A stretch of 64,000 nt of DNA from Gammaproteobacteria bacterium. GTDB lineage: Bacteria; Pseudomonadota; Gammaproteobacteria; Natronospirales; REEB76. The notes below the pieces were generated by a model. It was not told where the DNA came from, searched no databases, and worked only from the letters and a program-made list of their open reading frames with translations. This document shows, in pieces, positions 1 to 62,273 of the stretch. The stretch spans positions 24,286 through 88,285 of the forward strand of contig DAHUYB010000077.1 in NCBI GenBank assembly GCA_027315405.1, in the 5' to 3' direction. Positions within the stretch are counted from its first letter, which is position 1. Each line of letters opens with the position of its first letter. The translations under genes and the position numbers were made by a program.

Positions 1-118
1 CCGTGGCAACGGTCTGGGGCGCCTGAGTTTGGGGCCCGTAATCATGCATCCACGCCTGATAAATCAGGAATGCGACAAACACCAGTGCCGCGAACAAAAA
101 TAACCGGCGGTTATCCAT
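1..118 (-). CDS. yidC: membrane protein insertase YidC, 5' end only (the gene continues beyond the window edge)
   Basis: The reverse strand from ATG at 118..116 reads [35 protein letters not shown]. This parallels the E. coli YidC N-terminal anchor ([26 protein letters not shown]). It sits in the canonical position after rpmH-rnpA-yidD. Confidence 0.75.
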
Positions 119-942: not shown

Positions 943-1039
943 CTCCATTGAACCGGTATAGACTCTTTCGCTCTTTCGCGCAGCATCGTCAATACGCTGC
1001 CGGGTTGAATTGAATCAATCGAACTGCCGGGGGTCTAGC

Positions 1040-2359
1040 ATGCCATCGCTGTGGACGCGGTGTGTGGATCATTTAGAGCATGAGCTTACGGAGCAAGAGC
1101 TCAACACCTGGATCCGGCCACTACACGCTCAGGAAGACAGCCATACGCTGCGGCTACTAGCGCCCAACCGCTTCGTCATGGATTGGGTACGAGACCGCTT
1201 CCTGCCAAGGATTTCCAAGCTCGCCAAGGAATTGGCTGAAGACCGGGAACGCCGGGTGCTGTTGGAGGTCGGAGCGGTCCAAGAAATACCCCCGCAGGGC
1301 CACGCCACCGTACCTATCGGTAATCTGGTCCCCACATCGGGTACCGGGCTTAACCTTCTGTATACCTTTGAAACATTTGTTGAAGGCAAATCGAATCAAT
1401 TTGCTCTGGCTGCCGCCCGCCAAGTGGCTGAGAACCCCGGCAGGGCATACAACCCCCTGTTTATCTATGGCGGGGTGGGGCTCGGCAAGACCCATCTTAT
1501 GCAGAGTGTCGGCCACCTGATCCAGTCACGTAACCCCCAAGCACGGGTCGCGTATGTGCACTCTGAGCGCTTTGTTAACGACATGGTGCGTGCCCTACAA
1601 CACAACACGATTAACGAATTCAAACGCCATTACCGCACCCTGGACGCATTACTCATCGATGACATACAGTTTTTCGTCGGCAAGGAACGTTCCCAAGAAG
1701 AATTTTTCCATACCTTTAATGCCCTGCTGGAGGGCCAGCAGCAGGTAATCCTTACCTGTGACCGCTATCCCAAAGAAGTCGAGGGCCTGGAGGAGCGGCT
1801 CAAATCACGCTTTGGGTGGGGGCTTACGGTCCCCATTGAGCCACCTGAGCTGGAAACCAGGGTGGCTATTCTTATGAAAAAAGCCAGCCTTGAAAATGTC
1901 GCGTTGCCGAATGATGTGGCATTTTTCATCGCTCAGCGAGTCAGTTCCAATATCCGGGAATTGGAAGGCGCGCTGCGCCGGGTGGCAGCTAATGCCCAGT
2001 TTACCGGCCAAGCCGTAAGCTTGGAAAATACCCGCGAATGGCTTAAAGATATCCTTGCGCGGCAGGACCGCTTAGTTACCTTGGACAATATTCAGAAAAC
2101 AGTAGCGGATTACTTTCATGTGCGGGTCAGTGACATGCTCTCCAAAAAACGCAGTCGCTCAATTGCTAGACCCCGGCAGGTCGCCATGAGTCTTGCCAAG
2201 GGCCTTACCACCCATAGCCTGCCGGAAATCGGTGATGCTTTTGGCGGTCGCGACCATACGACCGTACTGCATGCCTGCCGCAAGGTACAGGAATTACGTG
2301 GTATGGAACCGCGGTTTGAGGAAGACTATCAAACCCTCATAAGAACCCTTTCATGTTGA
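1040..2359 (+). CDS. dnaA: chromosomal replication initiator protein DnaA
   Basis: From ATG 1040 the product ([16 protein letters not shown]...NTWIRPL...[14 protein letters not shown]) aligns with the E. coli DnaA N-terminus. It has the AAA+ Walker [11 protein letters not shown] and a C-terminal DnaA-box-binding domain. The TTG at 1010 in the ORF track is probably an over-extension. Confidence 0.97.
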
Positions 2360-2581
2360 ACAATTGTGGGTAAGCTGTGGAAGACTCTTGGGGCTTAAAC
2401 CACACACAGTGTATGAACGGGTTAACACCACTCTTTCGGCCGAGAAACCAACAAGATAAAAACAATCTAACTATATGATTTATAAATAAAATTTAGTTTT
2501 ATAAACATAAATGCATGATTTAATTATGATAATTAATTATCTAAAATTATCTATCTCCAATATCTATAGACAGGTGGATAA
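2360..2581. other. candidate oriC / DNA-unwinding element in the dnaA-dnaN spacer
   Basis: About 115 bp of extreme AT-richness (approx 2455..2570) in an otherwise GC-rich window, with a repeated ATGATTTA. It is flanked by DnaA-box-like 9-mers: TGTGGGTAA at 2366..2374 (8/9), TGTGGAAGA at 2376..2384 (7/9) and GGTGGATAA at 2573..2581 (8/9). Confidence 0.5.
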
Positions 2582-3682
2582 ATGAAATTTGAGACCCTTC
2601 GGGACACCCTTCTTTCCCCTGTTCAGGCGGTCGTTGGCGTTGTGGAAAGAAGGCAAACCATGCCCATACTTGCCAACCTATTACTAGCTGTTTCGGATGA
2701 TGGGCTATCGGTAACCGGTACGGACATGGAAGTTGAGCTGGTCGCAAATACCCCAGTTGAGGTACAGGAAAAGGGCGAAGTGACGGTTCCAGCCCGCAAA
2801 CTGCTGGAAATCTGCCGGGCTCTACCAGAAGGGGCAAAACTTGCGATCAGTTTGGATAATGGCAAGCTTTCCCTACGTTCGGGGCATAGCCGCTTTAGTC
2901 TAGCCACTTTGCCTGCTACCGATTTTCCCTCCGTTGAGGATATCCAGGTGCAACGGGGTTTCGCGGTCAGCCAAAAACAGCTGCGTGATTTGATTGCCAG
3001 AACGGCATTTTCCATGGCTCAGCAGGATGTGCGTTATTACTTGAACGGTTTGTTGTTGGAAACCAGTGAAAATCGCTTACGCGCAGTGGCCACGGATGGA
3101 CACCGGCTAGCACTGTGTGATTTACAAACCACGGGCGCAAACAGCCCTGTGCAACAAGTAATCCTGCCGCGTAAAGGCGTGCTCGAGCTGCAGCGTCTTT
3201 TAGCGGATGTTGATACGGAAGCCCAAATCGAGTTGGGTATGAACCACCTGCGTGTAAGCTTGCCTAGCCTGAGGTTCACGTCCAAGTTGATTGATGGACG
3301 ATTCCCGGAGTATGAGCGGGTGGTACCTAAAGGTGGCGACAAGGTGTTCATCGCCGATCGCCAGCTTTTGCGCGAAACTCTGGGCCGGGCCGCTATTCTC
3401 TCCAACGAAAAATACAGGGGGGTAAGGTTGCAGCTGGCAACAAAACACCTGAAAGTCATGGCCCACAATCCAGAACAGGAAGAGGCAGAAGATGAGTTGG
3501 AAGTTCAATATCAAGGAAATGAACTGGAGATAGGGTTCAATGTGACTTATCTGTTGGATGCTTTGGCAGCACTTGAGAGTGAGCAGGTACATATCACTTT
3601 GACCGACGCCAATAGCAGTTGCTTAATCCGTGGGCCAGAAAATGAACACTGCCGCTATGTGGTTATGCCGATGCGGCTCTGA
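2582..3682 (+). CDS. dnaN: DNA polymerase III beta sliding clamp
   Basis: 366-aa ORF with the typical DnaN start (MKFETLRDTLLSPVQAVVGVVERRQTMPILANLLL) and three-domain length. Synteny dnaA-dnaN-recF. Confidence 0.97.
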   Translation: MKFETLRDTLLSPVQAVVGVVERRQTMPILANLLLAVSDDGLSVTGTDMEVELVANTPVEVQEKGEVTVPARKLLEICRALPEGAKLAISLDNGKLSLRSGHSRFSLATLPATDFPSVEDIQVQRGFAVSQKQLRDLIARTAFSMAQQDVRYYLNGLLLETSENRLRAVATDGHRLALCDLQTTGANSPVQQVILPRKGVLELQRLLADVDTEAQIELGMNHLRVSLPSLRFTSKLIDGRFPEYERVVPKGGDKVFIADRQLLRETLGRAAILSNEKYRGVRLQLATKHLKVMAHNPEQEEAEDELEVQYQGNELEIGFNVTYLLDALAALESEQVHITLTDANSSCLIRGPENEHCRYVVMPMRL

Positions 3683-3694
3683 CCAGTAATCCTT

Positions 3695-4765
3695 ATGGGG
3701 TTATTGAATCTCTCCTTGCGTAATTTCCGTTGTTTTACTGCCGCCGACCTCGAATTTGCCCCAACGTTTAATTTGATCACCGGGGAAAATGCTTCAGGAA
3801 AAACCAGCCTGATTGAAAGCATTTTCCTTATGGGTCGAGGGCGTTCTTTCAGGACGGCAAACTTGGAATCGGCGGTTCGTGCGGGCACCAACGGATTTCA
3901 GATTGTCGGGCGGGTATCCAGCCAATCCACCCCAATACCTATAGGACTTGCCCGTGAAAATGGTCATCTAGAGGCGAGAATTGCAGGGCAGACGCCGGCG
4001 ACATTGGCGCAGTTATCGGAAACCTTTCCAGTTCAGTTAGTAGATAATCAGGCACATGAAATTATACGAGGCAACCCACATCGGCGCCGGCAGTTTTTGG
4101 ATTGGGGTGTGTTTCACGTGGAACCGACCTTTTTCCCTGTCTGGCGCCGTTATCAGCGGGTTTTGCGCCAGCGCAATACGCTGCTGCGCAACGGCAATCC
4201 CCAACCAGAGATATCGAGTTGGGATAGGGAATTGGTTTCTCAGGGGGAAGCGTTGGGTGCCTTCAGGCAGGAATATCTAGCGAGCTTGCTCCCGACTGCC
4301 ACCGCCTGGGCGAGTCAAGCCTTAGGCGGACTCGAAATTAGTTTGGAGTATCGCCCGGGGTGGCCAAGAGAGCAGGGTTTTCCGGATGCCTTGAAGAATG
4401 CAATCGAACGGGATCGATATGCGGGTATGACGCAGGTCGGACCCCATAGGGCCGAGATGCTGATAAAAGTGGAGGGTAAGCCTGCTCAAGAAAGGGTCTC
4501 CCGGGGACAGGAAAAAGCGTTGGTTGGAGCCTTATTGCTGGCTCAAGCTGCTGTTTACCGGGCGCGTAGTGGGCGGCCCTGCACCTTGTTGCTGGATGAT
4601 TTAGCCGCTGAATTCGATAGCGGACACCTAACCCGATTTCTAGACCGCGTAGAAGAATGCGGCGCCCAGACCCATATTACTGCCATAGATCCCCCTTCTT
4701 CGATCACAAGCCGGGTAGCAAAGGCGTTCCACGTGAAACAAGACAAAATCACCGAAATGGTATAA
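3695..4765 (+). CDS. recF: DNA replication/repair protein RecF
   Basis: 356 aa. Walker A GENASGKTS, SMC-like signature region and C-terminal LLLDDLAAEFD (Walker B). Confidence 0.95.
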   Translation: MGLLNLSLRNFRCFTAADLEFAPTFNLITGENASGKTSLIESIFLMGRGRSFRTANLESAVRAGTNGFQIVGRVSSQSTPIPIGLARENGHLEARIAGQTPATLAQLSETFPVQLVDNQAHEIIRGNPHRRRQFLDWGVFHVEPTFFPVWRRYQRVLRQRNTLLRNGNPQPEISSWDRELVSQGEALGAFRQEYLASLLPTATAWASQALGGLEISLEYRPGWPREQGFPDALKNAIERDRYAGMTQVGPHRAEMLIKVEGKPAQERVSRGQEKALVGALLLAQAAVYRARSGRPCTLLLDDLAAEFDSGHLTRFLDRVEECGAQTHITAIDPPSSITSRVAKAFHVKQDKITEMV

Positions 4766-7958
<3,193 letters not shown>

Positions 7959-11773: not shown

Positions 11774-13183
11774 ATGCCCTCCAAAGATGTCTTGGATCTG
11801 ATTGCCAAAGAAAACGCGAAGTTTGTGGACTTCCGCTTCACCGACAGCCGCGGCAAGGAGCAGCACGTGAGTGTGCCGGCGCATACCGTGGACGAAGAAC
11901 TGTTCGAGGATGGCAAAATGTTTGACGGCTCTTCCATTGCCGGCTGGAAGGGAATCAATGAATCCGACATGATTCTGATGCCCGATCCCGGCAGCGCAAT
12001 TATGGATCCGTTCTTCGAGGAGCCTACCGTCAATCTGCGTTGTGACGTTATCGAACCCGCCACCATGCAAGGCTACGGGCGTGATCCACGCTCCCTCGCC
12101 AAGCGTGCCGAGGCCTATCTAAAATCCACCGGCATCGCCGATACCGCCTACTTCGGACCGGAGAACGAATTTTTCATTTTTGATGATATCCGCTGGGGTG
12201 CCGATATCAGCGGCTCCTTCTACAAGATTGACTCCAAGGAAGCTGGCTGGAATTCCGAGCGCGTTTACGAGGGCGGCAATATTGGCCATCGTCCTGGCAT
12301 CAAGGGCGGGTATTTCCCGGTGCCACCGGTGGATGCCTTGCAGGACATCCGTTCCGCCATGTGCATGGCGCTGGAAGACATGGGCTTGAAAACCGAAGTG
12401 CACCATCATGAGGTAGCAACCGCGGGTCAGTGCGAAATCGGTGTAGCTTTCGGCACGCTTGTCAAGAAAGCCGACGAAGTGCAGATCCTCAAGTATGTAG
12501 TCATGAACGTGGCGCATGCGTATGGCAAAACCGCCACCTTCATGCCCAAACCCCTGGTAGGCGACAACGGCAGTGGCATGCACGTACACCAGTCGCTGGC
12601 CAAGGAGGGTAAAAACCTGTTCAGCGGCAACCTCTATGGCGGGTTGTCGGAACTGGCGCTCTACTATATCGGCGGCATCATCAAGCATGCACGCGCACTG
12701 AATGCCCTAACCAACGCCAGTACCAACAGCTACAAACGCTTGGTGCCGCATTTCGAAGCACCGGTAATGCTGGCTTACTCCGCCCGCAACCGTTCTGCCT
12801 CCATCCGCATTCCCTACGTATCCAGCCCCCAAAAGCGCCGTATTGAGGTACGTTTCCCAGATTCCAGCGGCAACCCTTATTTTGCTTTTAGCGCCATGAT
12901 GATGGCAGGCTTGGACGGCATCCAAAACAAGATCCACCCGGGCGAAGCCATGGACAAGGATCTTTATGATCTGCCGCCGGAGGAGGAAAAAAATATTCCC
13001 CAGGTTTGCTATTCATTGGATATGGCGTTGGAATATCTGGACAAGGACCGCGGCTTTCTGAAAGTTGGCGGGGTGTTCACTGACGATGTGATTGATGCCT
13101 ACATCGGGCTCAAGATGCAAGAAGTCACGCGTCTGCGTATGACCACACATCCGGTGGAATTTGACATGTACTTCAGCTTGTAA
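11774..13183 (+). CDS. glnA: glutamine synthetase type I
   Basis: [35 protein letters not shown] is the classic GSI N-terminus. About 469 aa. The adenylylation-loop region (NLYDLPPEE-like [15 protein letters not shown]) is present. Confidence 0.97.
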
Positions 13184-33189: not shown

Positions 33190-33591
33190 TCAGATTTCCG
33201 GCTTGCCCACATCCACGTCATCCAGATCGTGGGAATAATCGGTGGCCAGGACGGCGCGTGCCAAGGTCTCGTCCGCACGCATGACGCGAAGTTTGATGCC
33301 GCCGAGGGCGATGGCATACAACCAGTCCATTTGCACCATGTTGTCATCGAACAGTAACGCGCGAATTCCCTCCGCCGCCAGCCGCCCCATGGCGATATGT
33401 GCATCGATAGTCTTGTCGAAGGTGGCGATGGTGACGTATTCGTCCATGTCGGCAACCAAGTCGGCATTGCAATCCCCGTCGCCTGCCGCCCTCGGCGGCG
33501 AGCGCCACGCCCGGTCGCTGTCCTCGGTGAGTGCACTATAAAAGCGGGTTAACCAGACCGAAAACTGCCGGAATGCGGGGAATACCAGCAA
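33190..33591 (-). CDS. DUF2007 (putative signal-transducing) domain protein
   Basis: The C-terminal ~85 aa (YVTIATFDKTIDAHIAMGRLAAEGIRALLFDDNMV...IKLRVMRADETLARAVL) fit DUF2007. The true start may be ATG 33447. Confidence 0.6.
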   Translation of the reverse strand: MLVFPAFRQFSVWLTRFYSALTEDSDRAWRSPPRAAGDGDCNADLVADMDEYVTIATFDKTIDAHIAMGRLAAEGIRALLFDDNMVQMDWLYAIALGGIKLRVMRADETLARAVLATDYSHDLDDVDVGKPEI

Positions 33592-33665
33592 GGTTGTGTC
33601 CCGGAACTTGCGTCGCGTAGCGACTAACCTTTGGGATTAAAACACAAAACCGTGACGACGGCGGC

Positions 33666-33695
33666 ATAAAAAACCCGGCGGACGGGACCGCCGGG
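33666..33695 (-). terminator. Rho-independent terminator of the candidate Csr/Rsm sRNA
   Basis: Perfect 8-bp GC stem (CCCGGCGG 33674..33681 pairs with CCGCCGGG 33688..33695), 6-nt loop, followed on the minus strand by U6 (A run 33668..33673 on plus). Confidence 0.7.
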
Positions 33696-33816
33696 TTAAG
33701 GCCTTCATGGCCAGAGGTGATTGAGTGTACCTAAAAGGGCGTAAGCATCCTTGCTGGTCCATACCCCGCCCCGGGTCCTTGATCCTATCCTTGTCCCGCC
33801 ATTCCTTGGCAGTGCA
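33666..33816 (-). ncRNA. candidate Csr/Rsm-family CsrA(RsmA)-sequestering sRNA
   Basis: The intergenic minus-strand transcript carries 7 GGA motifs within about 60 nt (plus-strand TCC at 33748, 33758, 33776, 33783, 33788, 33794, 33803). Five are AAGGA/UAGGA, including GCAAGGAUGC and CUGCC-AAGGAAU-GGCGG hairpin loops. A strong terminator follows. The 5' end is estimated from a TAACAC -10-like element at 33822..33827. Confidence 0.55.
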
Positions 33817-33876
33817 GGCAAGTGTTACTCTGCCACGGGCAGATTGCCGGCACAGTCGGAGGACCCCGGCAGCCAG

Positions 33877-33894
33877 CGTAGGAAAAGGCTTACA
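33877..33894 (-). promoter_or_regulatory. GacA/UvrY-type upstream activating box-like inverted repeat
   Basis: The minus strand reads TGTAAG-CCTTTT-CCTACG, against the consensus TGTAAG-N6-CTTACA. The left half is perfect and the right half matches 4/6. It is centred about 70 nt upstream of the estimated sRNA 5' end. Confidence 0.4.
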
Positions 33895-33959
33895 TCGAAA
33901 GTTGTCCTCCCATTTTGATTTTGCGGTAAAACCCAGCAACAAACCCCAAAACCAGCCCC

Positions 33960-34916
33960 ATGCGCGAACTCTTCCCTCCCCTGGAACCCCTTGCCACCCG
34001 CAGCCTACGCGTACAGGCGCCCCATGAGATTTATGTGGAGGAATGCGGCAATCCCGGCGGGCTGCCGGTGGTGTTCGTTCACGGTGGTCCGGGCGGTGGC
34101 TGTACCACCGACAACCGCAGGTTTTTCGATCCGGCGCGTTATCGCATCGTGCTCTTCGATCAACGCGGTTGCGGCCGTTCACGGCCGCACGCGGAACTCA
34201 CGCACAACACTACCCAGGCGCTGGTGGAGGACATGGAGCGTATCCGGGAAACCCTCGGCATTGAGCGCTGGCTGGTTTTCGGCGGTTCCTGGGGTTCGAC
34301 CTTGGCCTTGGTATACGCCGAAACGCATCCACAGCGGGTCCTGGCGCTGATCCTGCGCGGCATTTTCCTGGTCACAGCGGCGGAACTCAACTGGTTTTAC
34401 CAAGACGGCATCCAGCATCTGTTTCCGGACCATTTCGAGGAGTTCGTGGCGCCGATCCCGGCGGCCGAGCGCAACGACCTGATACACGCCTATTACCGGC
34501 GTCTCACCAGCGATGATCCCGCCACACGCCAACGCGCGGCGGAAGTCTGGTCGTTGTTCGAGGCGCGCTGCTCAACGTTGTTGCCCAGTGAATCCGTCGT
34601 AGATCATTTTTCCGAGCCGGATGTGGCCATGGCCATCGCCCGCATTGAATGTCATTACTTTGTACATGATTGTTTCCTGACCCCTGGCCAGATCATCCGC
34701 GATGCGCCGCGTATCCGGAATATCCCCGGCGTGATCGTGCAAGGGCGCTACGATGTGGTATGTCCGGCGTCCGCCGCTTGGCAGCTGCACAAGGCGTGGC
34801 CGGAAGCGCGGTTCCGGTTAATTCCCGATGCCGGCCACGCCTCCAGCGAACCGGGCATCTGCTCCGCCCTGGTGGAAGCGACCGATGAGTTTGCTGGCCG
34901 TTTCAAAACCCCATGA
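33960..34916 (+). CDS. pip: prolyl aminopeptidase (proline iminopeptidase)
   Basis: 318 aa. [10 protein letters not shown] and the nucleophile elbow [10 protein letters not shown]. Alpha/beta-hydrolase S33 family pattern. Confidence 0.9.
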
Positions 34917-42129: not shown

Positions 42130-42240
42130 TTAGCGGGTAGTAAATGTGTTTCCAGGTTGTATTCCGAAGCTGCCTGCCACACCGGCCTTGAGTTCCAGAA
42201 CGTATTTTGCCGGGGCGGCGCTGGCACAGGTGGCTACTCT
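42130..42240 (-). pseudogene. orphan 3'-terminal remnant of a DUF192 gene
   Basis: The minus-strand translation ...CASAAPAKYVLELKAGVAGSFGIQPGNTFTTR(stop) parallels the C-terminus of the intact DUF192 gene at 46740..47192 (...YSSAAPAKYVLELHPGVAEKLGIRPGVILTIEP). No N-terminal part is present. Confidence 0.65.
42190..42224. repeat. left copy of the 35-nt direct repeat flanking the microcin islet
   Basis: GAGTTCCAGAACGTATTTTGCCGGGGCGGCGCTGG. Identical at 34/35 positions to 46803..46837. Confidence 0.9.
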
Positions 42241-42261
42241 GGGATGAGCGCAGAGATATAC

Positions 42262-42292
42262 TTGACAAAATCGCGCGGGGGGGGGGTAGGGT
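42262..42292 (+). promoter_or_regulatory. sigma70-like promoter candidate with a G10 homopolymer in the spacer
   Basis: Perfect -35 TTGACA (42262..42267), a 19-nt spacer containing G10 (42277..42286), and a weak -10 TAGGGT (42287..42292). Confidence 0.3.
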
Positions 42293-42306
42293 TGTCGCCG
42301 ATGAGC

Positions 42307-42336
42307 AGGACATACATTTTTACTGCTCACCATAAT
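42307..42336 (+). promoter_or_regulatory. sigma70-like promoter candidate proximal to the microcin gene
   Basis: AGGACA (42307..42312), 18-nt spacer, CATAAT (42331..42336). Lies about 28 nt upstream of ATG 42364. Confidence 0.35.
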
Positions 42337-42363
42337 TGCAAAATTACTCGAAAGGAGACAAAC

Positions 42364-42564
42364 ATGCGAAACCTTACCGCGAACGAATTCTCATTTGTAA
42401 GTGGTGGAGCACCAGCAGGTGAGTCCGAATTGGACACTGTCGCACAAGGTCTGGCCATTGGCGCTTTGGCAAACGCACTTGTTGGAGATGAACCAGGAGC
42501 GTTAACCTTAGCCGCGGCGGCGGGCGGAATAAAAATTGGCGAGTATATTTACTCGCTCTTTTAA
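42364..42564 (+). CDS. double-glycine-leader bacteriocin (class II microcin-like) precursor, 66 aa
   Basis: SD AAGGAG lies 8 nt upstream. The product is MRNLTANEFSFVSGG / APAGESELDTVAQGLAIGALANALVGDEPGALTLAAAAGGIKIGEYIYSLF. The leader is nearly superimposable on the colicin V leader MRTLTLNELDSVSGG. It is encoded next to a C39-ABC exporter. It is nested in the 135-aa track ORF 42157..42564. Confidence 0.75.
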   Translation: MRNLTANEFSFVSGGAPAGESELDTVAQGLAIGALANALVGDEPGALTLAAAAGGIKIGEYIYSLF

Positions 42565-42581
42565 AAACGAGATGATCTTTT

Positions 42582-42615
42582 GGTCCTTGTCAATTTGACA
42601 GGGACCTTTCGTTTT
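42582..42615 (+). terminator. intrinsic terminator/attenuator after the microcin gene
   Basis: 10-bp stem (GGTCCTTGTC 42582..42591 pairs with GACAGGGACC 42597..42606, one G-U pair), 5-nt loop, then UUUCGUUUU. Confidence 0.6.
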
Positions 42616-42651
42616 CACGTGAATTTCGATCTAAAAATTTCTGTACCAGCT

Positions 42652-43188
42652 ATGGTAAAAATCCACAAAATACGGCCTCTTGCAATCACCATTTGGCTAA
42701 TTGGGGTTGTAACACTCGGTTTAGGTCTTTATGTTTGGGGTATTAAATCAAATCCACTATTTTTCATGGAGATGTTGATATTTGGCTTAATTTGTATATG
42801 GATGACATTGTACAGCTACCTATGGGGGCATCAGAGAGGTCACCCGACACGATTTATTGCCATCGTGGTGTTTTCAAGTTTTTGTGTCTGCTTTTATCTG
42901 CGCTCGATCGGCATACTTGGCGGTCACTTATATTTTGTTATCCCGCTGTTATTTGTTGTGATTCTTATCTTGGTGCAATCTAAAACGAAACGACAATTTG
43001 CAGAAGACTATAAATCAGGCATTAAGCGAAATCATTTTAATGATACTAAAGAACGATTCGAGGTAACCAAAAAGACTACAGCCAGTTATCCCCACTATTT
43101 GCAAATAATTTTGCCCAAGCGATATTTGGACAACTATGATTCATTAAAAGCTTGGCTTAGATCGATTAAGGAACATATGCAAAAATAG
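42652..43188 (+). CDS. putative immunity protein (4-TM membrane protein, no recognised family)
   Basis: 179 aa from ATG 42652. Four hydrophobic helices then a Lys-rich cytoplasmic tail. AT-rich codon usage unlike the rest of the window. Sits in the immunity-gene position between the precursor and exporter genes. There is no clear SD. Confidence 0.5.
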   Translation: MVKIHKIRPLAITIWLIGVVTLGLGLYVWGIKSNPLFFMEMLIFGLICIWMTLYSYLWGHQRGHPTRFIAIVVFSSFCVCFYLRSIGILGGHLYFVIPLLFVVILILVQSKTKRQFAEDYKSGIKRNHFNDTKERFEVTKKTTASYPHYLQIILPKRYLDNYDSLKAWLRSIKEHMQK

Positions 43189-44598: not shown

Positions 44599-44619
44599 AA
44601 GTTCCCGGAGGACGTAGGA

Positions 44620-46731
44620 GTGACGCTGCGGTTCTCGCGCCGGCAGTTAACGGTAATGCTGCAAACCGAAGCCGCGGAATGCGGCCTTGCCTGCTTGGCC
44701 ATGGTTTTCAGTTTTCATGGCCACCGCATGGATGTGGGTGAGCTGCGGCGCCGATACAGTTTTTCTCTCAAGGGCGCGACACTCGCGCATCTCATTACCA
44801 TTGCCAACGGCTTGGGGTTCATCACGCGCCCCTTGCGGCTGGAACTTGAGGATTTACCAAAGCTTACCTGCCCCGCGATTCTGCACTGGGACTTGAATCA
44901 TTTCGTGGTGCTGAAGGCCGCACGCGGGCGCCACGTGGTGATTCACGATCCGGCTCGCGGGAGCCGCAGCCTCAATCTTGACGAGGTTTCCAAGCATTTT
45001 ACAGGCGTGGCGCTGGAGCTTGCTCCCGGCCACGGTTTTCAAACTAAAGCCGCTCCCGAAATACCAGCCATCTGGTCACTCCTTGGCGGTTGGCGGGGTA
45101 TGCTGGGCGCTCTTACCCAGATTCTGGTGTTTTCGCTGGCGCTGGAAGCCTTCGCGATTCTCAGCCCGTTCTTTACGCAGCTTGTCGTGGACCAGGTGCT
45201 GGTGAACCGCGACATGAACCTGTTGACGGTGCTCGGCATCGGTTTTGGTCTGCTGGCCATCATCAACGTGGTGGTCACGGCTTTGCGGGGTTGGATGGTG
45301 GCCTATCTCGGCAGTCACCTGCAATTTCACTCCGCGGCCGCGCTCATGCGGCATTTGGTGGGGTTGCCGTTGGACTTCTTCGCCAAAAGGCATATCGGCG
45401 ACGTGGTCTCGCGCTTTAATTCCATGAGCACCATTCAGCAGACCATGACTTCTGGGCTCATCGAGGCGCTGGTGGACGGCGTCATGGTGATATTCACCGT
45501 TGCCGTCATGTTGTTCTATAGCGTGCCGCTCACGCTGTTGATAGTCGCATTGATCGTGGGCTACGCAATCATCCGGTTTCTCGCCTACCGTCCGCTGCAC
45601 ACTGCCACCGAAGAGCAGATCATCCAGCTCGCCAAGCAGCAGTCCAATTTCCTGGAAACCGTGCGCGGCATGCAGAGTGTGAAAGTAGCCGGTTCCGAAG
45701 GAGAACGCCACACTCAGTATCAGAACCGGCTGGCGGACAACGTGAATGCTTCATTTATCGTCAGCAAGCTCGGTATCTGGTTCAAGGCCACAAACGGACT
45801 GTTGTTCGGTCTTGGGACCATCGCGGTGATCTGGTGGGGCGCAAGCGAAGTCATGGCCGGTATGTTGTCCATCGGCATGTTGATCGCATTCATTTCCTAC
45901 GCCAGCCAGAGCACCGGCAAGGCCGGGGCACTGATAGACAAAGCCATTGCCTTCCGCATGCTGCGGCTGCATGCGGAGCGGGTGGGCGATATTGTGTTTG
46001 CCGAGCCGGAGGCAGTTTCGTCTTTACCGCGGCTGGGACAGGTGCCCATCCGCGGCAGGATCGAAGTGGAGAATTTGTGCTACCGCTACGGTGATCTGGA
46101 AGCGCCGGTTCTGAGAAACGTGAGCTTTTACATCGAGCCAGGCGAGTCGGTAGGCATCGTTGGTCCGTCGGGCTGCGGCAAAACCACGTTGGTCAAGCTC
46201 CTGCTTGGCCTCATGCGGCCTACGGAAGGGACGATTAAGGTGGATGGTCTCGATATCCAGACCCTGGGCCTTTCTGAGTACCGTCGGCACGTGGGCGCGG
46301 TGATGCAAGAGGATCAGCTCTTTGCCGGTACTTTGTCGGACAATATCGCGTTTTTCGATCCGCAGGCGGATCAGTCATGGATTGAAACCTGTGCGAAACT
46401 CGCGGCTATCCACGGCGATATTCTGACCATGCCCATGGCCTACAACACGTTGATTGGCGACATGGGCACGGTTCTCTCCGGCGGCCAGAAGCAGAGAGTA
46501 CTGCTGGCGCGGGCACTTTATCGCCGACCGCGAATATTGCTGCTGGACGAGGCTACCAGCCACCTGGATGTACCCACGGAAAAACTGGTGAGCGACGCCG
46601 TGCGGCGACTGAAAATTACCCGCATTATTGTTGCTCATCGCTCCGAGACCATACGCTTAGTTGATCGGGTGCTTGGAATAATGCCGAATAAACCAGGTGT
46701 TACCGAACTGCGCAGAGTGAAAAATGTTTGA
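44620..46731 (+). CDS. cvaB: bacteriocin/microcin ABC exporter with N-terminal C39 peptidase domain (CvaB-like)
   Basis: 703 aa. QTEAAECGLACLAMV (catalytic Cys), HWDLNHFVVL, six TM segments, Walker A GPSGCGKTT, LSGGQKQR, LLLDEATSHLD. Collinear with CvaB as I recall it. Confidence 0.93.
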   Translation: MTLRFSRRQLTVMLQTEAAECGLACLAMVFSFHGHRMDVGELRRRYSFSLKGATLAHLITIANGLGFITRPLRLELEDLPKLTCPAILHWDLNHFVVLKAARGRHVVIHDPARGSRSLNLDEVSKHFTGVALELAPGHGFQTKAAPEIPAIWSLLGGWRGMLGALTQILVFSLALEAFAILSPFFTQLVVDQVLVNRDMNLLTVLGIGFGLLAIINVVVTALRGWMVAYLGSHLQFHSAAALMRHLVGLPLDFFAKRHIGDVVSRFNSMSTIQQTMTSGLIEALVDGVMVIFTVAVMLFYSVPLTLLIVALIVGYAIIRFLAYRPLHTATEEQIIQLAKQQSNFLETVRGMQSVKVAGSEGERHTQYQNRLADNVNASFIVSKLGIWFKATNGLLFGLGTIAVIWWGASEVMAGMLSIGMLIAFISYASQSTGKAGALIDKAIAFRMLRLHAERVGDIVFAEPEAVSSLPRLGQVPIRGRIEVENLCYRYGDLEAPVLRNVSFYIEPGESVGIVGPSGCGKTTLVKLLLGLMRPTEGTIKVDGLDIQTLGLSEYRRHVGAVMQEDQLFAGTLSDNIAFFDPQADQSWIETCAKLAAIHGDILTMPMAYNTLIGDMGTVLSGGQKQRVLLARALYRRPRILLLDEATSHLDVPTEKLVSDAVRRLKITRIIVAHRSETIRLVDRVLGIMPNKPGVTELRRVKNV

Positions 46732-47206: not shown

Positions 47207-48712
47207 TTAGTTGATTGGCATTCCCGGCGGCTGCTTGGTGAAGTCTTGCGGTGAAGGATTCTGGGTCAGGCGGTACACGCCCTCTCGTAGGATGCGGCGC
47301 ATGACGATATCCACGATGGTGGTCTGGTTGGGCTTGATGAAATTCCTGAGATTAACCGCCGTCGCCTTAAGGGTCGCCGGCTGATAGAGCACGAAGCCAT
47401 CCTGGGGGTAGGGCACCACGCGCAGGCCGAGGCCGTCGCAGGGCGGCAGCGCTGGCCGCAATTGCCGGCCTTTGTACATCACCGCCGGGCCGCCCAGCAT
47501 GCGGGTGTAATTGAGGTAGTAGGTGATGGTGCCGGGATCCAGGTGATTGCGCTGGCGGTCGATGAAAAATCCCGGCGGCAGGTGGTTGGGGCTATTGTCT
47601 TTGCCGGCGGTGAGAACGATATCGAAATCCTTGATGGCATTGCCTTGGTCGTCGCGCACCCGAAAAATGAGCATGCAGCAGGGATCCACGATTACCTGAT
47701 GATCGAAGGGACCAAGGCTGCCGCGGTCCTCCACTTGTTCTTGTTGTTGGACCTCCGCCGTTTGCGCGCGGAAGCTGTCGAAGAGTTCAGCGTAATCCTT
47801 GAGGGTGGTGACCCGCAGGCATTGTAGAATGCCCGTTACAGTGGCGTTGGGGGTGGCATCGGCGGGAATGCTGCGCATGATGCCCATGCGCAGGTCCGAA
47901 TGACAGACGCCGGGGATTACCGCCAACGGCACCGCCGCTGAAATTTCCGGTGCCCCGGCCTGCAGCAACGGGGCGCTGAAACCCAGCTTCGACTTTTTGT
48001 CCGCCGTTGGTGGTTGCTGTTTCAGGCGCACATAGGTGTAATTCAAGTTGGCAGCCGCCACCCGGACCACGCCATCGGAGCCGTTTTCCGCGGTGTAGCT
48101 GTTCACAAAATCGTAAAGTTGAGGATCGTGGGATTCGCCGCTGAGCACGAAGGGAAACAAGCCCTGCGAGCCGATATAGTCCGCGCCCTGTTGCAGCCAT
48201 TCGAGATTGAGTTTGAGACTCTGGGGACTGCCCAGTTCCAGCCATTCCAGTACGCCGGTACCCACGTCCACGCCCTCGAACCAGGCCTTGAGGCGCGAGA
48301 GCTTGGACAGCCCCAGTTGTACCAAAGCCGAACCGAAGTTCGCGGGCGCCAGCATGATGAGATGGCTCAGGGGCGAATGCTTGCGGCCAGCGTTGATATA
48401 GAAATGCTGCAGCCAGGCACGGATCACCGGGCAGCCGGTGGAATGGGCGATGCAGGCGATACGTTGCCCATTTTTGATGGCCTCGCCCAGCTCCCGTTCC
48501 AAGGCCGTCTGGAAGGCGCGGGCAATATCCGGAATGGTGACTTCGTTGTGGAAACTGATGTATTCCGACAGCCAGAGATTGCGTACCTCGATGTCCAAAT
48601 CGGGCGAACGCTTGGCTTCCAGTTTGAGGCGCTGCGGCAGACCGCCGTAAGTATCGGTATTGCGCACGCTCCAGCCGTGTACCAGCACCACCAGGCGCTT
48701 TTGCTTAGCCAT
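47207..48712 (-). CDS. alpha/beta-hydrolase lipase, PlaB-like phospholipase A candidate
   Basis: 501 aa. VVLVHGWSV, the uncommon nucleophile motif AHSTG (PlaB has THSTG), LIMLAPANFGSAL, GSDGVVRVAAANLNY. A ~250-aa C-terminal domain of unknown fold follows. Confidence 0.6.
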   Translation of the reverse strand: MAKQKRLVVLVHGWSVRNTDTYGGLPQRLKLEAKRSPDLDIEVRNLWLSEYISFHNEVTIPDIARAFQTALERELGEAIKNGQRIACIAHSTGCPVIRAWLQHFYINAGRKHSPLSHLIMLAPANFGSALVQLGLSKLSRLKAWFEGVDVGTGVLEWLELGSPQSLKLNLEWLQQGADYIGSQGLFPFVLSGESHDPQLYDFVNSYTAENGSDGVVRVAAANLNYTYVRLKQQPPTADKKSKLGFSAPLLQAGAPEISAAVPLAVIPGVCHSDLRMGIMRSIPADATPNATVTGILQCLRVTTLKDYAELFDSFRAQTAEVQQQEQVEDRGSLGPFDHQVIVDPCCMLIFRVRDDQGNAIKDFDIVLTAGKDNSPNHLPPGFFIDRQRNHLDPGTITYYLNYTRMLGGPAVMYKGRQLRPALPPCDGLGLRVVPYPQDGFVLYQPATLKATAVNLRNFIKPNQTTIVDIVMRRILREGVYRLTQNPSPQDFTKQPPGMPIN

Positions 48713-58739: not shown

Positions 58740-59812
58740 GGCGCTTGCCTCTCGTAAGGGAAACACAGGCACACCCGATAAAACCCGTCAGCGGTATTGA
58801 CGCTCAGACTGGCGCGCTCGGGCCACGCGAGCATCAGGCGCTGGCGCACGTTTTCCATTGCCATCTGATTGCCGTGCCGCCGTGGCGCGTTCTCCGGCGG
58901 CAGCGGGTTGCTGATTTCTATATTGAGGATATCGGCGTCGCGTGTGCCAAGGACCTCGACGGTGCCGCCGTGAGGCTGGGTCTCGATGCCGTGGTAAATG
59001 GCGTTTTCGAGCAGCGGTTGCAGCAACAGCTGCGGCACGTGCGCATCCACCGGCAACGCATCGGTCTGCCAGTTCACCTTGAGGCGCTCACCGAGGCGCA
59101 ATTCCTCGATGCGCTGGTACTGTTGTGCCATTGCCATCTCCTCGGCGAGCGTCACCGTAGGACTGGTTTTTTTGAGGCTGGCCCGGAACAGGTCGGCCAA
59201 ATCCTCGATGGTGCGTTCCGCCAGATCCGGATTGCTGCGGATGAGCGCGGCGATGGTATTTATGCTGTTGAACAGGAAATGCGGATGAATACGCGCCTGT
59301 AGTGCTTCGATACGGGCGCGCGCCTCGCGCTGCACGTTGCGTTTCCACTGATGTTGCACGTAGAAATAGCGTAGCACCAGGATACTGACGATGACGCATA
59401 TCAAGAGATTGCGCAGCACGAAACCGGTATGACTCAGGGGTAGAAAGGTTTGGCCGATACCGGTGTAGTTGGATAGCCGGAAGGCGATCTCGCTTAACAC
59501 CCCGGTGGTGATGAGCAGCAGTATGAAACTCACGGCCGCGGCGCGGCGCAAGGGCATGCGCATCAGGAACTTGCGCGTGGCGCACAGCACGCCGGCGCTG
59601 GTCAGCCCGATCCATTGGAGGAACAGCGAAATGCGCGCCAGATCCAGCCACAGCACCGTGCCCTCGCCCGGCAGGTGGCGCGCGATCACCAGCACGAAGG
59701 CGGTGAGCTCTGCAATCAGTATCACCACCAGCACCACTGGCGCCGAACAGAAGTCCGGCAGGAAAAACTCCTCGGGCGCGGTTTTGGCGGAGTCGCTTTT
59801 GGCCATGTGCAT
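58736..59812 (-). CDS. algZ: LytS/YehU-type sensor histidine kinase (AlgZ/FimS-like)
   Basis: Four N-terminal TM helices, His_kinase motif IHPHFLFNSINTI, and a C-terminal HATPase. The start is taken at ATG 59812 (the track uses TTG 59842). Confidence 0.82.
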   Translation of the reverse strand: MHMAKSDSAKTAPEEFFLPDFCSAPVVLVVILIAELTAFVLVIARHLPGEGTVLWLDLARISLFLQWIGLTSAGVLCATRKFLMRMPLRRAAAVSFILLLITTGVLSEIAFRLSNYTGIGQTFLPLSHTGFVLRNLLICVIVSILVLRYFYVQHQWKRNVQREARARIEALQARIHPHFLFNSINTIAALIRSNPDLAERTIEDLADLFRASLKKTSPTVTLAEEMAMAQQYQRIEELRLGERLKVNWQTDALPVDAHVPQLLLQPLLENAIYHGIETQPHGGTVEVLGTRDADILNIEISNPLPPENAPRRHGNQMAMENVRQRLMLAWPERASLSVNTADGFYRVCLCFPYERQAP

Positions 59813-59846
59813 CAGTGTCGGAGGTTCCGGCGCGGCGGGCAAGAGT
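59746..59846. repeat. copy A of the diverged ~100-nt repeat (5' end of algZ plus about 35 nt upstream)
   Basis: Hand alignment to 61184..61283 gives about 77 identical positions of 101 with one 1-nt gap. Confidence 0.75.
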
Positions 59847-60118
59847 GTTGGTCATCAAGCGTTGCGATCACAAGGGGGATACCTGTATTTGGTTATCGGT
59901 GGTGCCCCGTTTCTCCCCCCGCGGATTGCCGGACTCCAGGTTCACCTCGCTTCGCCCGGTTCCTCAGGTGCGGCCTTCTCCGGCCCGATGAGACGGGCCG
60001 GAGTTGGCTTGCATGTATGGATCGGTGTCTTGAAAACCGCTGGCAGACGGCCTCGGCAGCCTACGCCCACGCCACGTTTGTCATGGCACTTGTTTTATGG
60101 GGCAGGCCATGTGCGCAT

Positions 60119-61075
60119 TCATGGCGTGTCTTGCGCAGGCGCTTCGTTGGCAATGTCGGCCACGCACAGCCACAGTCCGCCCGGAGCCCGGCGCCAGACA
60201 CTGATCCCGCGGGTGTGCAGCTTCACCAGCTTACCGTTCGAGTCCGGAAACGTCATCACATCGACGCCGCGCATGAATGCCATGCTGCCGTCACTGGAGA
60301 ACATCGGTTTTTCGGAGACCCAGTGGATGCTGAAGCCGGGTGTATGCAGGCTGTCCGCGACGTAGGCGCGGATGGCCGTCTTGCCTTCATAAATCTGTTG
60401 CCCCGGTTCGACGACGATGGCGTCGTCGCTCCAATAGGAAACGATTTTCTCAATATCCTTCCCGGCGGTTGCGGCAGCGGCCCACTCCGCATCGCGTTGC
60501 AACAACACCTTGCTTTCGGCTTCAGCGTCGAAAGCAGTGCGCACGTGGTCACAGACTTCCTCGTCGGTTTTGACCCATCGGCCGTTTTCGTCTTGTACCT
60601 TGCCGGTGTGCGCGGGTGCGTTGCTGCCTGCCCTGCCGTAGATATCACGCCCGTGGACCAGTTTGCCGTGCTCCATGTTGCTGTATTCGAAGGTCAAGGT
60701 GTCGCCGACCGGGCCATTGCTGGTCGAGGTGTTGTGGCCGAACAGATCGACGATGCTCTGGACGTACTGTTTGGTGGCTGCGTCATAGCCGATGTAGCCA
60801 CCGATGTGATACGGATGCGGACTCGCGGCGGTGTGCGTTGCGTCGTAAGTGAAATGAATCCAGGCCCCGCCGACCGCCAGCTCGCCTTGCGCGATGCCGG
60901 TCGTAATGGTCTGCGGGCGGTACCTGGTTGCGAACAGCGTGCTGGTGCAATCCCGCGTGCCGGGAAAGATATAAGGTGCAATACGAGCCAGTTCCGGCGG
61001 CGGCACGTTCTGCGCCAGCAGCGACGCGCTCACACAGGTCAGGGTGAAAGCGATACCAAGCTGGAATGTTTTCAT
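60119..61075 (-). CDS. secreted two-domain protein with C-terminal DUF4440/SnoaL-like (NTF2 fold) domain
   Basis: Signal peptide MKTFQLGIAFTLTCVSASLLA. The C-terminal ~130 aa (LLQRDAEWAAAATAGKDIEKIVSYWSDDAIVVEPGQ...GISVWRRAPGGLWLCVADI) fit DUF4440. Confidence 0.7.
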   Translation of the reverse strand: MKTFQLGIAFTLTCVSASLLAQNVPPPELARIAPYIFPGTRDCTSTLFATRYRPQTITTGIAQGELAVGGAWIHFTYDATHTAASPHPYHIGGYIGYDAATKQYVQSIVDLFGHNTSTSNGPVGDTLTFEYSNMEHGKLVHGRDIYGRAGSNAPAHTGKVQDENGRWVKTDEEVCDHVRTAFDAEAESKVLLQRDAEWAAAATAGKDIEKIVSYWSDDAIVVEPGQQIYEGKTAIRAYVADSLHTPGFSIHWVSEKPMFSSDGSMAFMRGVDVMTFPDSNGKLVKLHTRGISVWRRAPGGLWLCVADIANEAPAQDTP

Positions 61076-61159
61076 GATGTCCTTCTCTCCCGTGGCTGCG
61101 GCAGTTCACCCGCCGCGTTGCGCAATGCGTCCATATCGGCGTCAGCGCCATCCTATGGG

Positions 61160-61283
61160 CCGCGTACATCACCGCCGGCGCGCAACAGAAATCCGGCAGG
61201 AACAATTCCCCAAAGGCGGTCTGCCGGATTCGTTTTCGGCCGTGCCCATGAGTGTCGGAGGTTTTGCTGCGGTCGGCAAGAGT
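61160..61283 (-). pseudogene. frameshifted 5' fragment of an algZ-like kinase gene (copy B of the repeat)
   Basis: The minus strand keeps the ATG (61249..61247) and, after a 1-nt deletion, the ELFLPDFCCAPAV segment, which is homologous to EEFFLPDFCSAPVV of AlgZ. Homology stops after about 25 codons. Confidence 0.55.
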
Positions 61284-61321
61284 ACCCGGCAGCCTGCGCT
61301 GCCAGGCCTGTTGCATCTGGT

Positions 61322-62200
61322 TCAGCGCCCAAACAGGCGGCGCTTGAGACGGTGCAGGGAGGAGATGTCCTCCTCGCCGTGGCTGGTTTCCAGCAGATGC
61401 CGGTAATGCAGCAGCGTCATCTCCACCAGCGGCAATTGCACGCCGCGGGCGGCGGCCATCCGCTGGACGATCTTCAGATCCTTTTCATGCAGCGCCACTT
61501 TGAAACCCAAAGGGTAGCGGCCTGCGACCATGCTGGGACCGCGGTGGCTCATGAACCAGGAGCCGGCAGCGCCGCTGCCCACCACCTCGATGACCTTGTC
61601 CAGTGGCAGACCCTCGGCTTCGGCGAACGCCAACGCCTCGCTAACCGCCTGGGCGATGCCGGCCACGGCGATTTGATTCACGGCTTTGGTAGCTTGCCCC
61701 GCGCCCACCGGCCCCATCAGTACGATGCGCTGGCCGAGGGCGCTGAGTATCGGCTGCGCACGCGCGAAAACTTTTTCATCGCCGCCGCACATGATGGCGA
61801 GCGTACCCTGCTTTGCACCTTCTGTACCGCCGGATACCGGGCAGTCGAGAAAATCAATTTTGTTTTTGGCCAAGCGTTGCGCTGCAGTACGTGCGGTCGC
61901 GGTGCTCACCGTGGAGCAGTCGACTACCAGCGCATCCGGTTTGAGATTCGTCGCCAGCTGATCCACCACATCCAAGACGTCCTGATCAGCGGATACACAC
62001 GTCGCTACCGCGTCGCAGTGTTTTGCCAGTTCGGCAATATCCTTGACAGCCAGACAACCGATTTCCTTCGCCAGCGCTTCGGCCTTGGAATGCGTGCGGT
62101 TGTATGCCGCGGCGAGCAGCCCGGCCTTGTGCAGATTGAGCGCCATGGGATAACCCATGGCGCCGAGCCCGATGAAACCCAGCTTGGAATATGTGGTCAT
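61322..62200 (-). CDS. NAD(P)-dependent beta-hydroxyacid dehydrogenase (3-hydroxyisobutyrate dehydrogenase family)
   Basis: From ATG 62200: KLGFIGLGAMGYPMALNL Rossmann motif, DCPVSGG, and the GAGQATKAVNQ family signature. Confidence 0.88.
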   Translation of the reverse strand: MTTYSKLGFIGLGAMGYPMALNLHKAGLLAAAYNRTHSKAEALAKEIGCLAVKDIAELAKHCDAVATCVSADQDVLDVVDQLATNLKPDALVVDCSTVSTATARTAAQRLAKNKIDFLDCPVSGGTEGAKQGTLAIMCGGDEKVFARAQPILSALGQRIVLMGPVGAGQATKAVNQIAVAGIAQAVSEALAFAEAEGLPLDKVIEVVGSGAAGSWFMSHRGPSMVAGRYPLGFKVALHEKDLKIVQRMAAARGVQLPLVEMTLLHYRHLLETSHGEEDISSLHRLKRRLFGR

Positions 62201-62273
62201 TTGTATTTCCGGATAAAGTCCAGGGGAAAACCGTTTTCTTAATGAATGCATACGCTACGCTGTGCCGTGTGTT

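Follow-up and report, generated by a model that had tools for sequence, protein, structure and literature searches.

A Predicted CsrA-Titrating Small RNA Divergent from pip in Uncultured Gammaproteobacteria

What is encoded on the minus strand between a DUF2007 gene and the divergently transcribed gene pip in an uncultured gammaproteobacterium? The locus lies in a stretch of 64,000 nucleotides (nt) from contig DAHUYB010000077.1 (assembly GCA_027315405.1), which was analyzed over its full length and is called the window here. A preliminary description of the window, made from its letters alone, had proposed a lineage-specific small RNA (sRNA) of the Csr/Rsm type with a GacA/UvrY-like box upstream of it. 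Our sequence checks support this proposal. The locus probably encodes a GacA-activated sRNA that titrates CsrA.

A conserved gene between DUF2007 and pip

The predicted sRNA spans about 153 nt at 33668..33820 on the minus strand. Its 3′ end is the U-tract of a terminator, and its 5′ end is an estimate. To find relatives, 80 loci were retrieved with the pip protein (33960-34916, plus strand) from assemblies representing one genome per species. The 18 closest loci (L001-L018) showed pip identities of 69-97%, and all came from uncultured Gammaproteobacteria, two of them labelled Natronospirales. A BLAST alignment was obtained in 18 of these 18 relatives. It ran from an upstream palindrome, or from just downstream of it, to the terminator or just past it. 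The rest of the spacer toward pip was unalignable among these species-level relatives with BLAST and MAFFT.

A covariance model, R1, was built from 19 sequences, namely the window and L001-L018 (alignment A1). R1 found a single copy in the window, with 172.6 bits at 33664-33826 on the minus strand, and one copy in each of L001-L018. Nothing convincing was obtained with R1 on the other 62 pip loci. Metagenome contigs were also scanned with a pattern taken from the 3′ part of the RNA, which gave 36 loci. R1 matched 33 of them, about 30 strongly, and most carried JGI-style contig names. The family comprises about 45 members from uncultured soil and sediment gammaproteobacteria. Gene order is preserved around it: a LOG gene (plus strand), the DUF2007 gene and the sRNA (both minus strand), then the divergent pip and dtd (both plus strand).

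The preliminary description had expected standard annotation to miss this element, and this was borne out. The pip sequence of the window also occurs in GCA_027441035.1 and GCA_027315565.1, where the gap holds no annotated gene, and no Rfam model detects the element. The accompanying statement that no credible open reading frame (ORF) covers the region held only in substance. Two mechanically called ORFs do cover it on the minus strand, one of 181 amino acids (33637-34182) and one of 38 amino acids (33705-33821). The longer was rejected as a gene, being antisense to pip. The shorter is frame-broken or stop-interrupted in 22 of 40 homologues, and the element is for this reason regarded as non-coding. 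No reading frame is conserved across the homologues. Judged from these alignments, we are dealing with a non-coding gene that is conserved, lacks annotation and ends in a terminator of its own.

GGA sites, RNA structure and the upstream palindrome

All of the motifs noted at the outset were recovered at the places given for them. On the minus strand, seven GGA within about 60 nt had been reported, and seven were counted in 58 nt at 33805-33748, together with four CAAGGA. The hairpin CUGCC-AAGGAAU-GGCGG is present at 33812-33796, the motif GCAAGGAUGC, likened to the CsrA consensus from systematic evolution of ligands by exponential enrichment, at 33754-33745, and the box TGTAAG-N6-CCTACG at 33894-33877. 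The terminator carries the U6 run and the GC-rich stem attributed to it; the stem length of 8 bp was wrong, the actual stem having 10 bp, 8 of them G-C.

The GGA triplets start at 33805, 33796, 33790, 33785, 33778, 33760 and 33750, four of them as CAAGGA. To judge this cluster, motifs were counted in 70-nt sliding windows over both strands of the 64-kb window (128 kb in all). CAAGGA averaged 0.03 per sliding window and reached its unique maximum, 4, at the GGA cluster. AGGA (5) and ANGGA (5) also peaked uniquely there. In dinucleotide shuffles of the RNA, the 5 ANGGA observed compare with a mean of 0.77, and 5 was reached in 0 of 2000 shuffles. The excess of plain GGA was modest (7 observed, 3.8 expected) and is weaker evidence because 24 of 2000 shuffles also reached 7. 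A second GGA-dense spot at 12946-12979 on the plus strand (9 GGA in 100 nt) lies inside the coding sequence of glutamine synthetase and was rejected as an RNA element.

Conservation of the GGA motifs in orthologous spacers had been named as a test that could refute the proposal. Over 41 sequences (alignment A2), six GGA sites were kept in 40, 35, 41, 41, 36 and 41 of 41, and all of them lie within 90 nt of the 5′ end. In sequences with a different local context, GGA is retained and moved by one base, as in CCAGUGGAUGG. The aligned spacers, which had also been suggested as a source of covariation, showed compensatory changes in the hairpins.

The first of these hairpins, H1 (CUGCC-AAGGAAU-GGCGG, 33796..33812, minus strand, from RNAalifold), presents GGA site 1 in its loop. 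Both sides have changed in four of its five pairs, and pairing holds in 98% of the cells. The loop GGA is found in 40 of 41 sequences when variants shifted by one base are counted. Site 1 was predicted to be unpaired with a probability of 0.94-1.0 in seven of eight sequences, the exception being the distant member L089. H1 is followed by the linker GGGACAAGGAUAGGAUCAAGGA (33776..33796, minus strand), which is unpaired in the consensus structure and holds sites 2-4. The window and its closest relatives alone have one more GGA in the linker. At site 3, the family consensus is ACAAGGAUGU, which fits exactly the CsrA consensus ACARGGAUGU that the preliminary description cites.

GGA sites 5 and 6 are enclosed by hairpin P3, GGGGCG...CGCCCU (33736..33772, minus strand). 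At its top, site 5 reads AUGGAC and site 6 lies in a small hairpin, GCA-AGGA-UGC, which is the optimal form. P3 was the outer helix in most distinct sequences when these were folded individually. Compensatory variants of P3 were GGGGC/GCCCC (L098) and GGGCC/GGCCC (L086 and L095), with further ones in L093 (GGAACCGG/CCGGUUCC) and L089 (GGGACCGG/CCGGUCCC).

Toward the 3′ end, hairpin H4 reads GGCC-AUGAA-GGCC in the window (33700..33712, minus strand) and AGCC...GGCU in relatives. Its covariation resides in the closing pair, which alternates between A-U and G-C in 8 of 41 sequences; the remaining three pairs are invariant. The rho-independent terminator found by terminator scan, AACCCGGCGG-TCCCGT-CCGCCGGGTT followed by T6 (33697-33668, minus strand), has a 6-nt loop and is conserved in all homologues, and one of its pairs alternates between C-G and A-U in 18 of 41. 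It is expected to act on the minus strand only, because the hairpin of the plus strand has no T run behind it. Taken together, H1, H4 and the terminator base had 98.8% of cells paired compared with 91.8% in column shuffles, and six of their pairs change on both sides. None of 500 shuffles reached these values, and controls in which the helices were slid fell to 32-54% paired. In the modeled structure, which carries compensatory changes, the GGA sites are mainly in loops and linkers.

Upstream of the RNA, the 18-bp palindrome of GacA/UvrY type, TGTAAGCCTTTTCCTACG (TGTAAG-N6-CCTACG, 33877..33894, minus strand), is the presumed activator site. It was the sole match in the window to TGTARG-N6-CYTACA with at most one mismatch, where about 0.12 are expected by chance. 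Since one such match arose in 12 of 100 shuffles, the palindrome alone is weak evidence. To assess its conservation, 38 distinct upstream regions were stacked in one register. In 37 of the 38 promoters the palindrome occupied −68..−51 relative to the model start; in L004 it was off by one base. Half-site identity was 0.93, compared with 0.56 in the remaining upstream columns, and no other part of the promoter is as well conserved. The family consensus is TGTA(A/G)G-N6-CCTACA, seen commonly as TGTAAG-N6-CCTACA or as TGTAGG-N6-CCTACA, which is a perfect palindrome. The box in the window is exceptional in its final G.

The published UvrY/GacA box is an 18-bp sequence, TGTAAGN6CTTACA (PMC3171408, PMC11611043). 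The box in the window is like it in length, half-site and N6 spacing, and boxes of the relatives agree with it at 10-11 of 12 positions. In the distant members L093, L089 and L101 the right half is the canonical CTTACA. This graded series from CCTACA to CTTACA suggested that the family box grades into the published one.

A −10-like hexamer, CAGAGT, preceded by TGG, was placed at 33827..33832 (minus strand), immediately ahead of the model start, as a putative promoter element. Its family pattern, (C/G)A(G/A)A(G/T)T, showed a column identity of 0.84 over the 38 promoters, with A2, A4 and T6 kept. These features point to a promoter with a start site near 33820, about 65 nt downstream of the box centre. 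A weak promoter with only a −10 element would fit dependence on an activator.

Weighing CsrA titration against other readings

Kulkarni et al. (2006) described five sequence features common to known CsrA-regulating sRNAs (PMC1488887). The first three are an intergenic location, a high density of AGGA or ARGGA and a rho-independent terminator. The other two are GGA motifs in loops or free regions and a conserved upstream site of the UvrY/GacA type. All five were found for the sRNA of the window. It is intergenic, lying between the DUF2007 gene and pip with no gene called in public assemblies. Its 5 AGGA/ANGGA in 60 nt are the unique maximum of the window, and its terminator, with the 10-bp stem (8 G-C) and T6, is present in all homologues. 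In the consensus structure, the H1 loop holds the first GGA site, the linker the next three and the top of P3 the last two. TGTA(A/G)G-N6-CCTACA is fixed in 37 of 38 promoters as a presumed GacA-binding site. Because all five features are present, a CsrA-titrating sRNA is the best explanation of the locus.

For the mechanism beyond these features, we infer the steps from the established Gac/Rsm and BarA/UvrY-Csr cascades. A phosphorylated response regulator of the GacA/UvrY family would bind the palindrome and activate an otherwise weak promoter, one with a −10-like element that lacks a clear −35. The RNA would then accumulate, each molecule binding perhaps three CsrA dimers through paired exposed GGA sites. 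CsrA-repressed messenger RNAs would be released, with the RNA titrating the translational repressor CsrA/RsmA by molecular mimicry.

Several observations weigh against this explanation. The 5′ end of the sRNA is estimated from sequence features, and a generic sigma-70 scan called no promoter and found no clear −35. Searches with tblastn and Pfam did not find csrA, gacA/uvrY or gacS in the window or the retrieved loci. The tblastn search returned unrelated receiver domains only, and the regulators present were of the LytTR type and the sigma-54 activator type. The distribution of CsrA is patchy even within Proteobacteria, and the BarA/UvrY pair has been described as a hallmark of Gammaproteobacteria (PMC7366521). 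A scan of the whole window at Rfam gathering thresholds gave no Csr/Rsm match. Structural evidence is also mixed. Folded as a whole, the RNA shows no unusual stability (z = −1.5). A helix at the 5′ end, P1, in which RNAalifold pairs the 5′ end with GGGGCGG, competes with P3, and the structure is not fully settled; the compensatory changes of P3 are clearer than those of P1. Several GGA sites are partly paired in single-sequence folds, where the exposure of sites 3-5 varies and the mean unpaired probability is 0.57 for GGA sites compared with 0.44 across the RNA. Finally, the best conserved block of the RNA is no GGA site.

This block, CAAUCACCUC in the window (33714..33723, minus strand) and CAAUCACCUCC in most relatives, stays single-stranded in the consensus structure. 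No stretch of the RNA is better conserved, and the block is invariant in L001-L018. These loci carry no selection bias for the block, having been retrieved by way of pip; the metagenome members were picked using the block motif itself and add no support for its conservation. Within the block, AUCACCUC(C) matches the anti-Shine-Dalgarno tail of 16S ribosomal RNA, the nine bases AUCACCUCC being equal to the anti-Shine-Dalgarno sequence. The GGA-rich RNAs of Thiohalocapsa and Competibacteraceae, described below, carry a related motif, CUCAAYCA, at the same place, and L037 has AUCACCUUC in addition. The block has no role in the CsrA-titration model and may reflect a second function added to it. 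One elaboration, which we regard as rather unlikely, is an RNA of two modules, a 5′ CsrA sponge and an autonomous 3′ AUCACCUCC, at an old pip-dtd-linked Rsm locus shared with Chromatiaceae and Competibacteraceae and lying outside the curated RNA families. The 3′ module could then pair with ribosome-binding sites or be a site for a turnover or partner factor.

The same block gives rise to the strongest rival, a trans-acting base-pairing sRNA. Here CAAUCACCUCC would be a seed that pairs with purine-rich ribosome-binding sites (GGAGGUGAUUG), and the GGA-rich 5′ half would be structural or incidental. The conservation of the block in the unbiased set L001-L018, its position between two hairpins near the terminator, as is often the case for seeds, its nine bases of anti-Shine-Dalgarno sequence and its counterpart in the Thiohalocapsa and Competibacteraceae RNAs all favor such a role. 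A search of the window found no convincing complement or target of the block, with 25 matches at up to 3 mismatches compared with 15.6 expected, start-codon position not considered. Base pairing also leaves unexplained the six conserved GGA sites, their retention despite shifting surroundings and the optimal GCA-AGGA-UGC hairpin. Nor does it explain the GacA-type box, which has been reported upstream of genes for CsrA-titrating sRNAs (PMC1488887, PMC3171408, PMC11611043). We consider a pure base-pairing sRNA improbable. In a milder form of this rival, pairing may be a second function added to CsrA titration.

Less probable by a clear step is a reading in which the palindrome serves a different regulator as its operator, such as one acting on the divergent pip-dtd, and the GGA-rich RNA binds or senses a ligand other than CsrA. 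The palindrome is symmetric, lies 66 nt upstream of the pip start codon and is usable in either direction; many members have the half-site TGTAGG in place of the canonical TGTAAG, and GacA was not found in the window or the retrieved loci. The distribution of the box argues otherwise. Among pip loci, the palindrome together with a GGA-rich terminated RNA was found only in L001-L018, L025-L027 and L037, with L046 as a weak case. Most of the remaining pip loci, which have no GGA-rich RNA, also have no palindrome, and the few stray palindromes lie far from the pip start, those of L047 and L048 preceding short GGA hairpins. L093 and L101 keep a related box beside the RNA, and no pip was detected in those loci. 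By this distribution, the box travels with the RNA rather than with pip. The graded series from CTTACA to CCTACA inside the family likewise argues against an operator of another kind. Two further identities considered for the palindrome were the CRP site, TGTGA-N6-TCACA, and the lux box, CTGTA-N6-TACAG. Both were rejected for the wrong half-site spacing, TGTA-N10-TACA being the spacing of the GacA box. A literature search found no paper connecting pip with a Gac-controlled sRNA.

The least probable rival, a cis-acting 5′ leader of the DUF2007 gene whose terminator is a regulated attenuator, perhaps under a GGA-binding protein, draws on that gene lying on the same strand about 210 nt downstream and on a pairing of sRNA and DUF2007 kept in nearly all members with enough sequence, and it is set aside on a strong terminator (invariant 10-bp G+C stem and U-tract) with no conserved antiterminator pairing seen, a separately conserved block past the terminator beyond which the sequence aligns for only about 60 nt, the extent of the alignment, and the lack of any detected DUF2007 homologue in the 1.2 kb downstream of the L089 RNA or in the Thiohalocapsa and Competibacteraceae loci. 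The block in question, TTTGTG(U/C)TTTAATC (33635..33648, minus strand), lies 20-35 nt past the terminator and is conserved in L001-L016 between variable flanks. It may belong to the promoter of the DUF2007 gene, and its membership in the sRNA unit is uncertain. None of the three rivals explains why the GGA sites and the GacA-type box are conserved together.

Related loci, neighboring features and known Csr/Rsm systems

Unannotated GGA-rich RNAs were also observed on the minus strand in Thiohalocapsa (L025 ∼3888-3560, L026 ∼3883-3560 and L027 ∼688-360) and Competibacteraceae (L037 ∼3972-3640). They resemble the sRNA of the window in being divergent from pip-dtd, with an upstream palindrome, TGTAGTCCGATTCCTACA or GGTAAGAAATTTCTTACA, and a terminator. 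They carry 8-12 GGA and have CUCAAYCA before the last hairpins. They differ in their greater length (about 200-270 nt), in a larger number of GCAxGGAUGC-type GGA repeats, in a canonical −10 (TATAAG or TATAGA) and in having no DUF2007 gene downstream. R1 found no match in L025-L027 and a marginal one in L037 (16.1 bits, E 0.048), and Rfam gave no match to these RNAs at E ≤ 1.

In two marine loci, L047 (∼3040-2700) and L048 (∼3130-2790), both on the minus strand, TGTCAG-N6-CCTACA precedes TATAAT-like elements and short hairpins, GGUUCAAGGAUGAACC among them. Two tandem copies of this arrangement lie about 0.9 kb upstream of pip, and they may be small Rsm-like RNAs. In the Thiohalomonadaceae-like loci L019-L021, the first ∼200 nt upstream of pip (minus strand) hold tandem ACACGGGGA units instead of a GGA-rich RNA, with an inverted copy of these units about 100 nt further. 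Three GGA-dense spots were rejected. The one in L079 (∼4056-3900, minus strand) is a (GGACAGA)n microsatellite, a simple tandem repeat and no sRNA; that in L022 is a purine-rich stretch; and that in L028 looks like part of a coding region.

Several features elsewhere in the window were recorded. The 133-amino-acid DUF2007 ORF (33190-33591, minus strand, TTG start) is probably over-extended at its N-terminus in public assemblies. Neither the homology to DUF2007 nor the Pfam match extends upstream of about 33456, and translation probably starts at the ATG at 33447. The spacer of 370 bp first given rested on the TTG start and has to be revised to a gap of about 500 bp. At 962-7210 on the plus strand, Pfam confirmed dnaA at the start of a run of four ORFs. 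The next three have the sizes and order that we would expect for dnaN, recF and gyrB; if this assignment is correct, the window starts beside the chromosomal replication origin region. Two long frames, open from stop to stop, had no Pfam match (59498-62242, plus strand, 914 amino acids; 47207-48712, minus strand, 501 amino acids). ORFs at 42130-43188 have a low third-position G+C of 0.38-0.51 and adjoin a C39-peptidase ABC exporter (44599-46731), which hints at acquired DNA.

If the CsrA-titration explanation is true, it would place a Gac/Rsm (BarA/UvrY-Csr) cascade in uncultured soil and sediment Gammaproteobacteria, in which post-transcriptional control has so far been undescribed. The seed alignment of about 45 members and its covariance model would allow genomes to be annotated for an RNA family absent from Rfam. 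With the variant box TGTAGG-N6-CCTACA, members of the direct GacA regulon could be predicted in these organisms. The invariant block resembling an anti-Shine-Dalgarno sequence is a specific oddity in an otherwise familiar class. Apart from it, the find will not surprise a specialist, and its use lies in annotation and in extending Gac/Rsm biology.

How does the family relate to known members of this class? As the preliminary description had predicted, the Rfam models of CsrB, CsrC, RsmX, RsmY and PrrB_RsmZ gave no match at E ≤ 10 in 33500-34050, where only terminator-driven chance matches appeared. Because the five features of CsrA-regulating sRNAs are present and no Rfam family matches, we regard the RNA as a separate family of a known functional kind. 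By sequence comparison it is a lineage-specific family and no homologue of the curated CsrB, CsrC, RsmX, RsmY and RsmZ families.

CsrB and CsrC of Enterobacteriaceae, Vibrio and Shewanella, which are controlled by BarA/UvrY, share with the sRNA of the window the same five features (PMC1488887), the presumed mechanism and the 18-bp type of upstream site. RNAs of the CsrB type are about 360-420 nt long with 16-21 motifs (PMC1488887), compared with 6-7 in the sRNA of the window, which matches neither the CsrB nor the CsrC model of Rfam. In GGA count and size it is closer to RsmX and RsmY than to CsrB (PMC7911923, PMC1488887).

RsmX, RsmY and RsmZ of Pseudomonas are about 110-130 nt long, a size class similar to the about 150 nt found here. 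They carry 6, 7 and 10 GGA motifs, respectively (PMC7911923), and the sRNA of the window 6-7, in both cases partly in hairpin loops and partly in linkers. Both are stand-alone intergenic genes with a rho-independent terminator, and the upstream activating sequence of each is an 18-bp palindrome of the TGTAAG-N6-CTTACA type (PMC3171408, PMC11611043). Unlike these RNAs, the family described here has the box TGTA(A/G)G-N6-CCTACA in place of one with the right half CTTACA, and its RNA shows no sequence or structure homology to them detectable with the Rfam models at E ≤ 10. Its context, divergent from pip-dtd and upstream of a DUF2007 gene, also differs, and its host is an uncultured lineage instead of Pseudomonas. 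Its invariant 3′ CAAUCACCUCC stands outside the described Rsm architecture.

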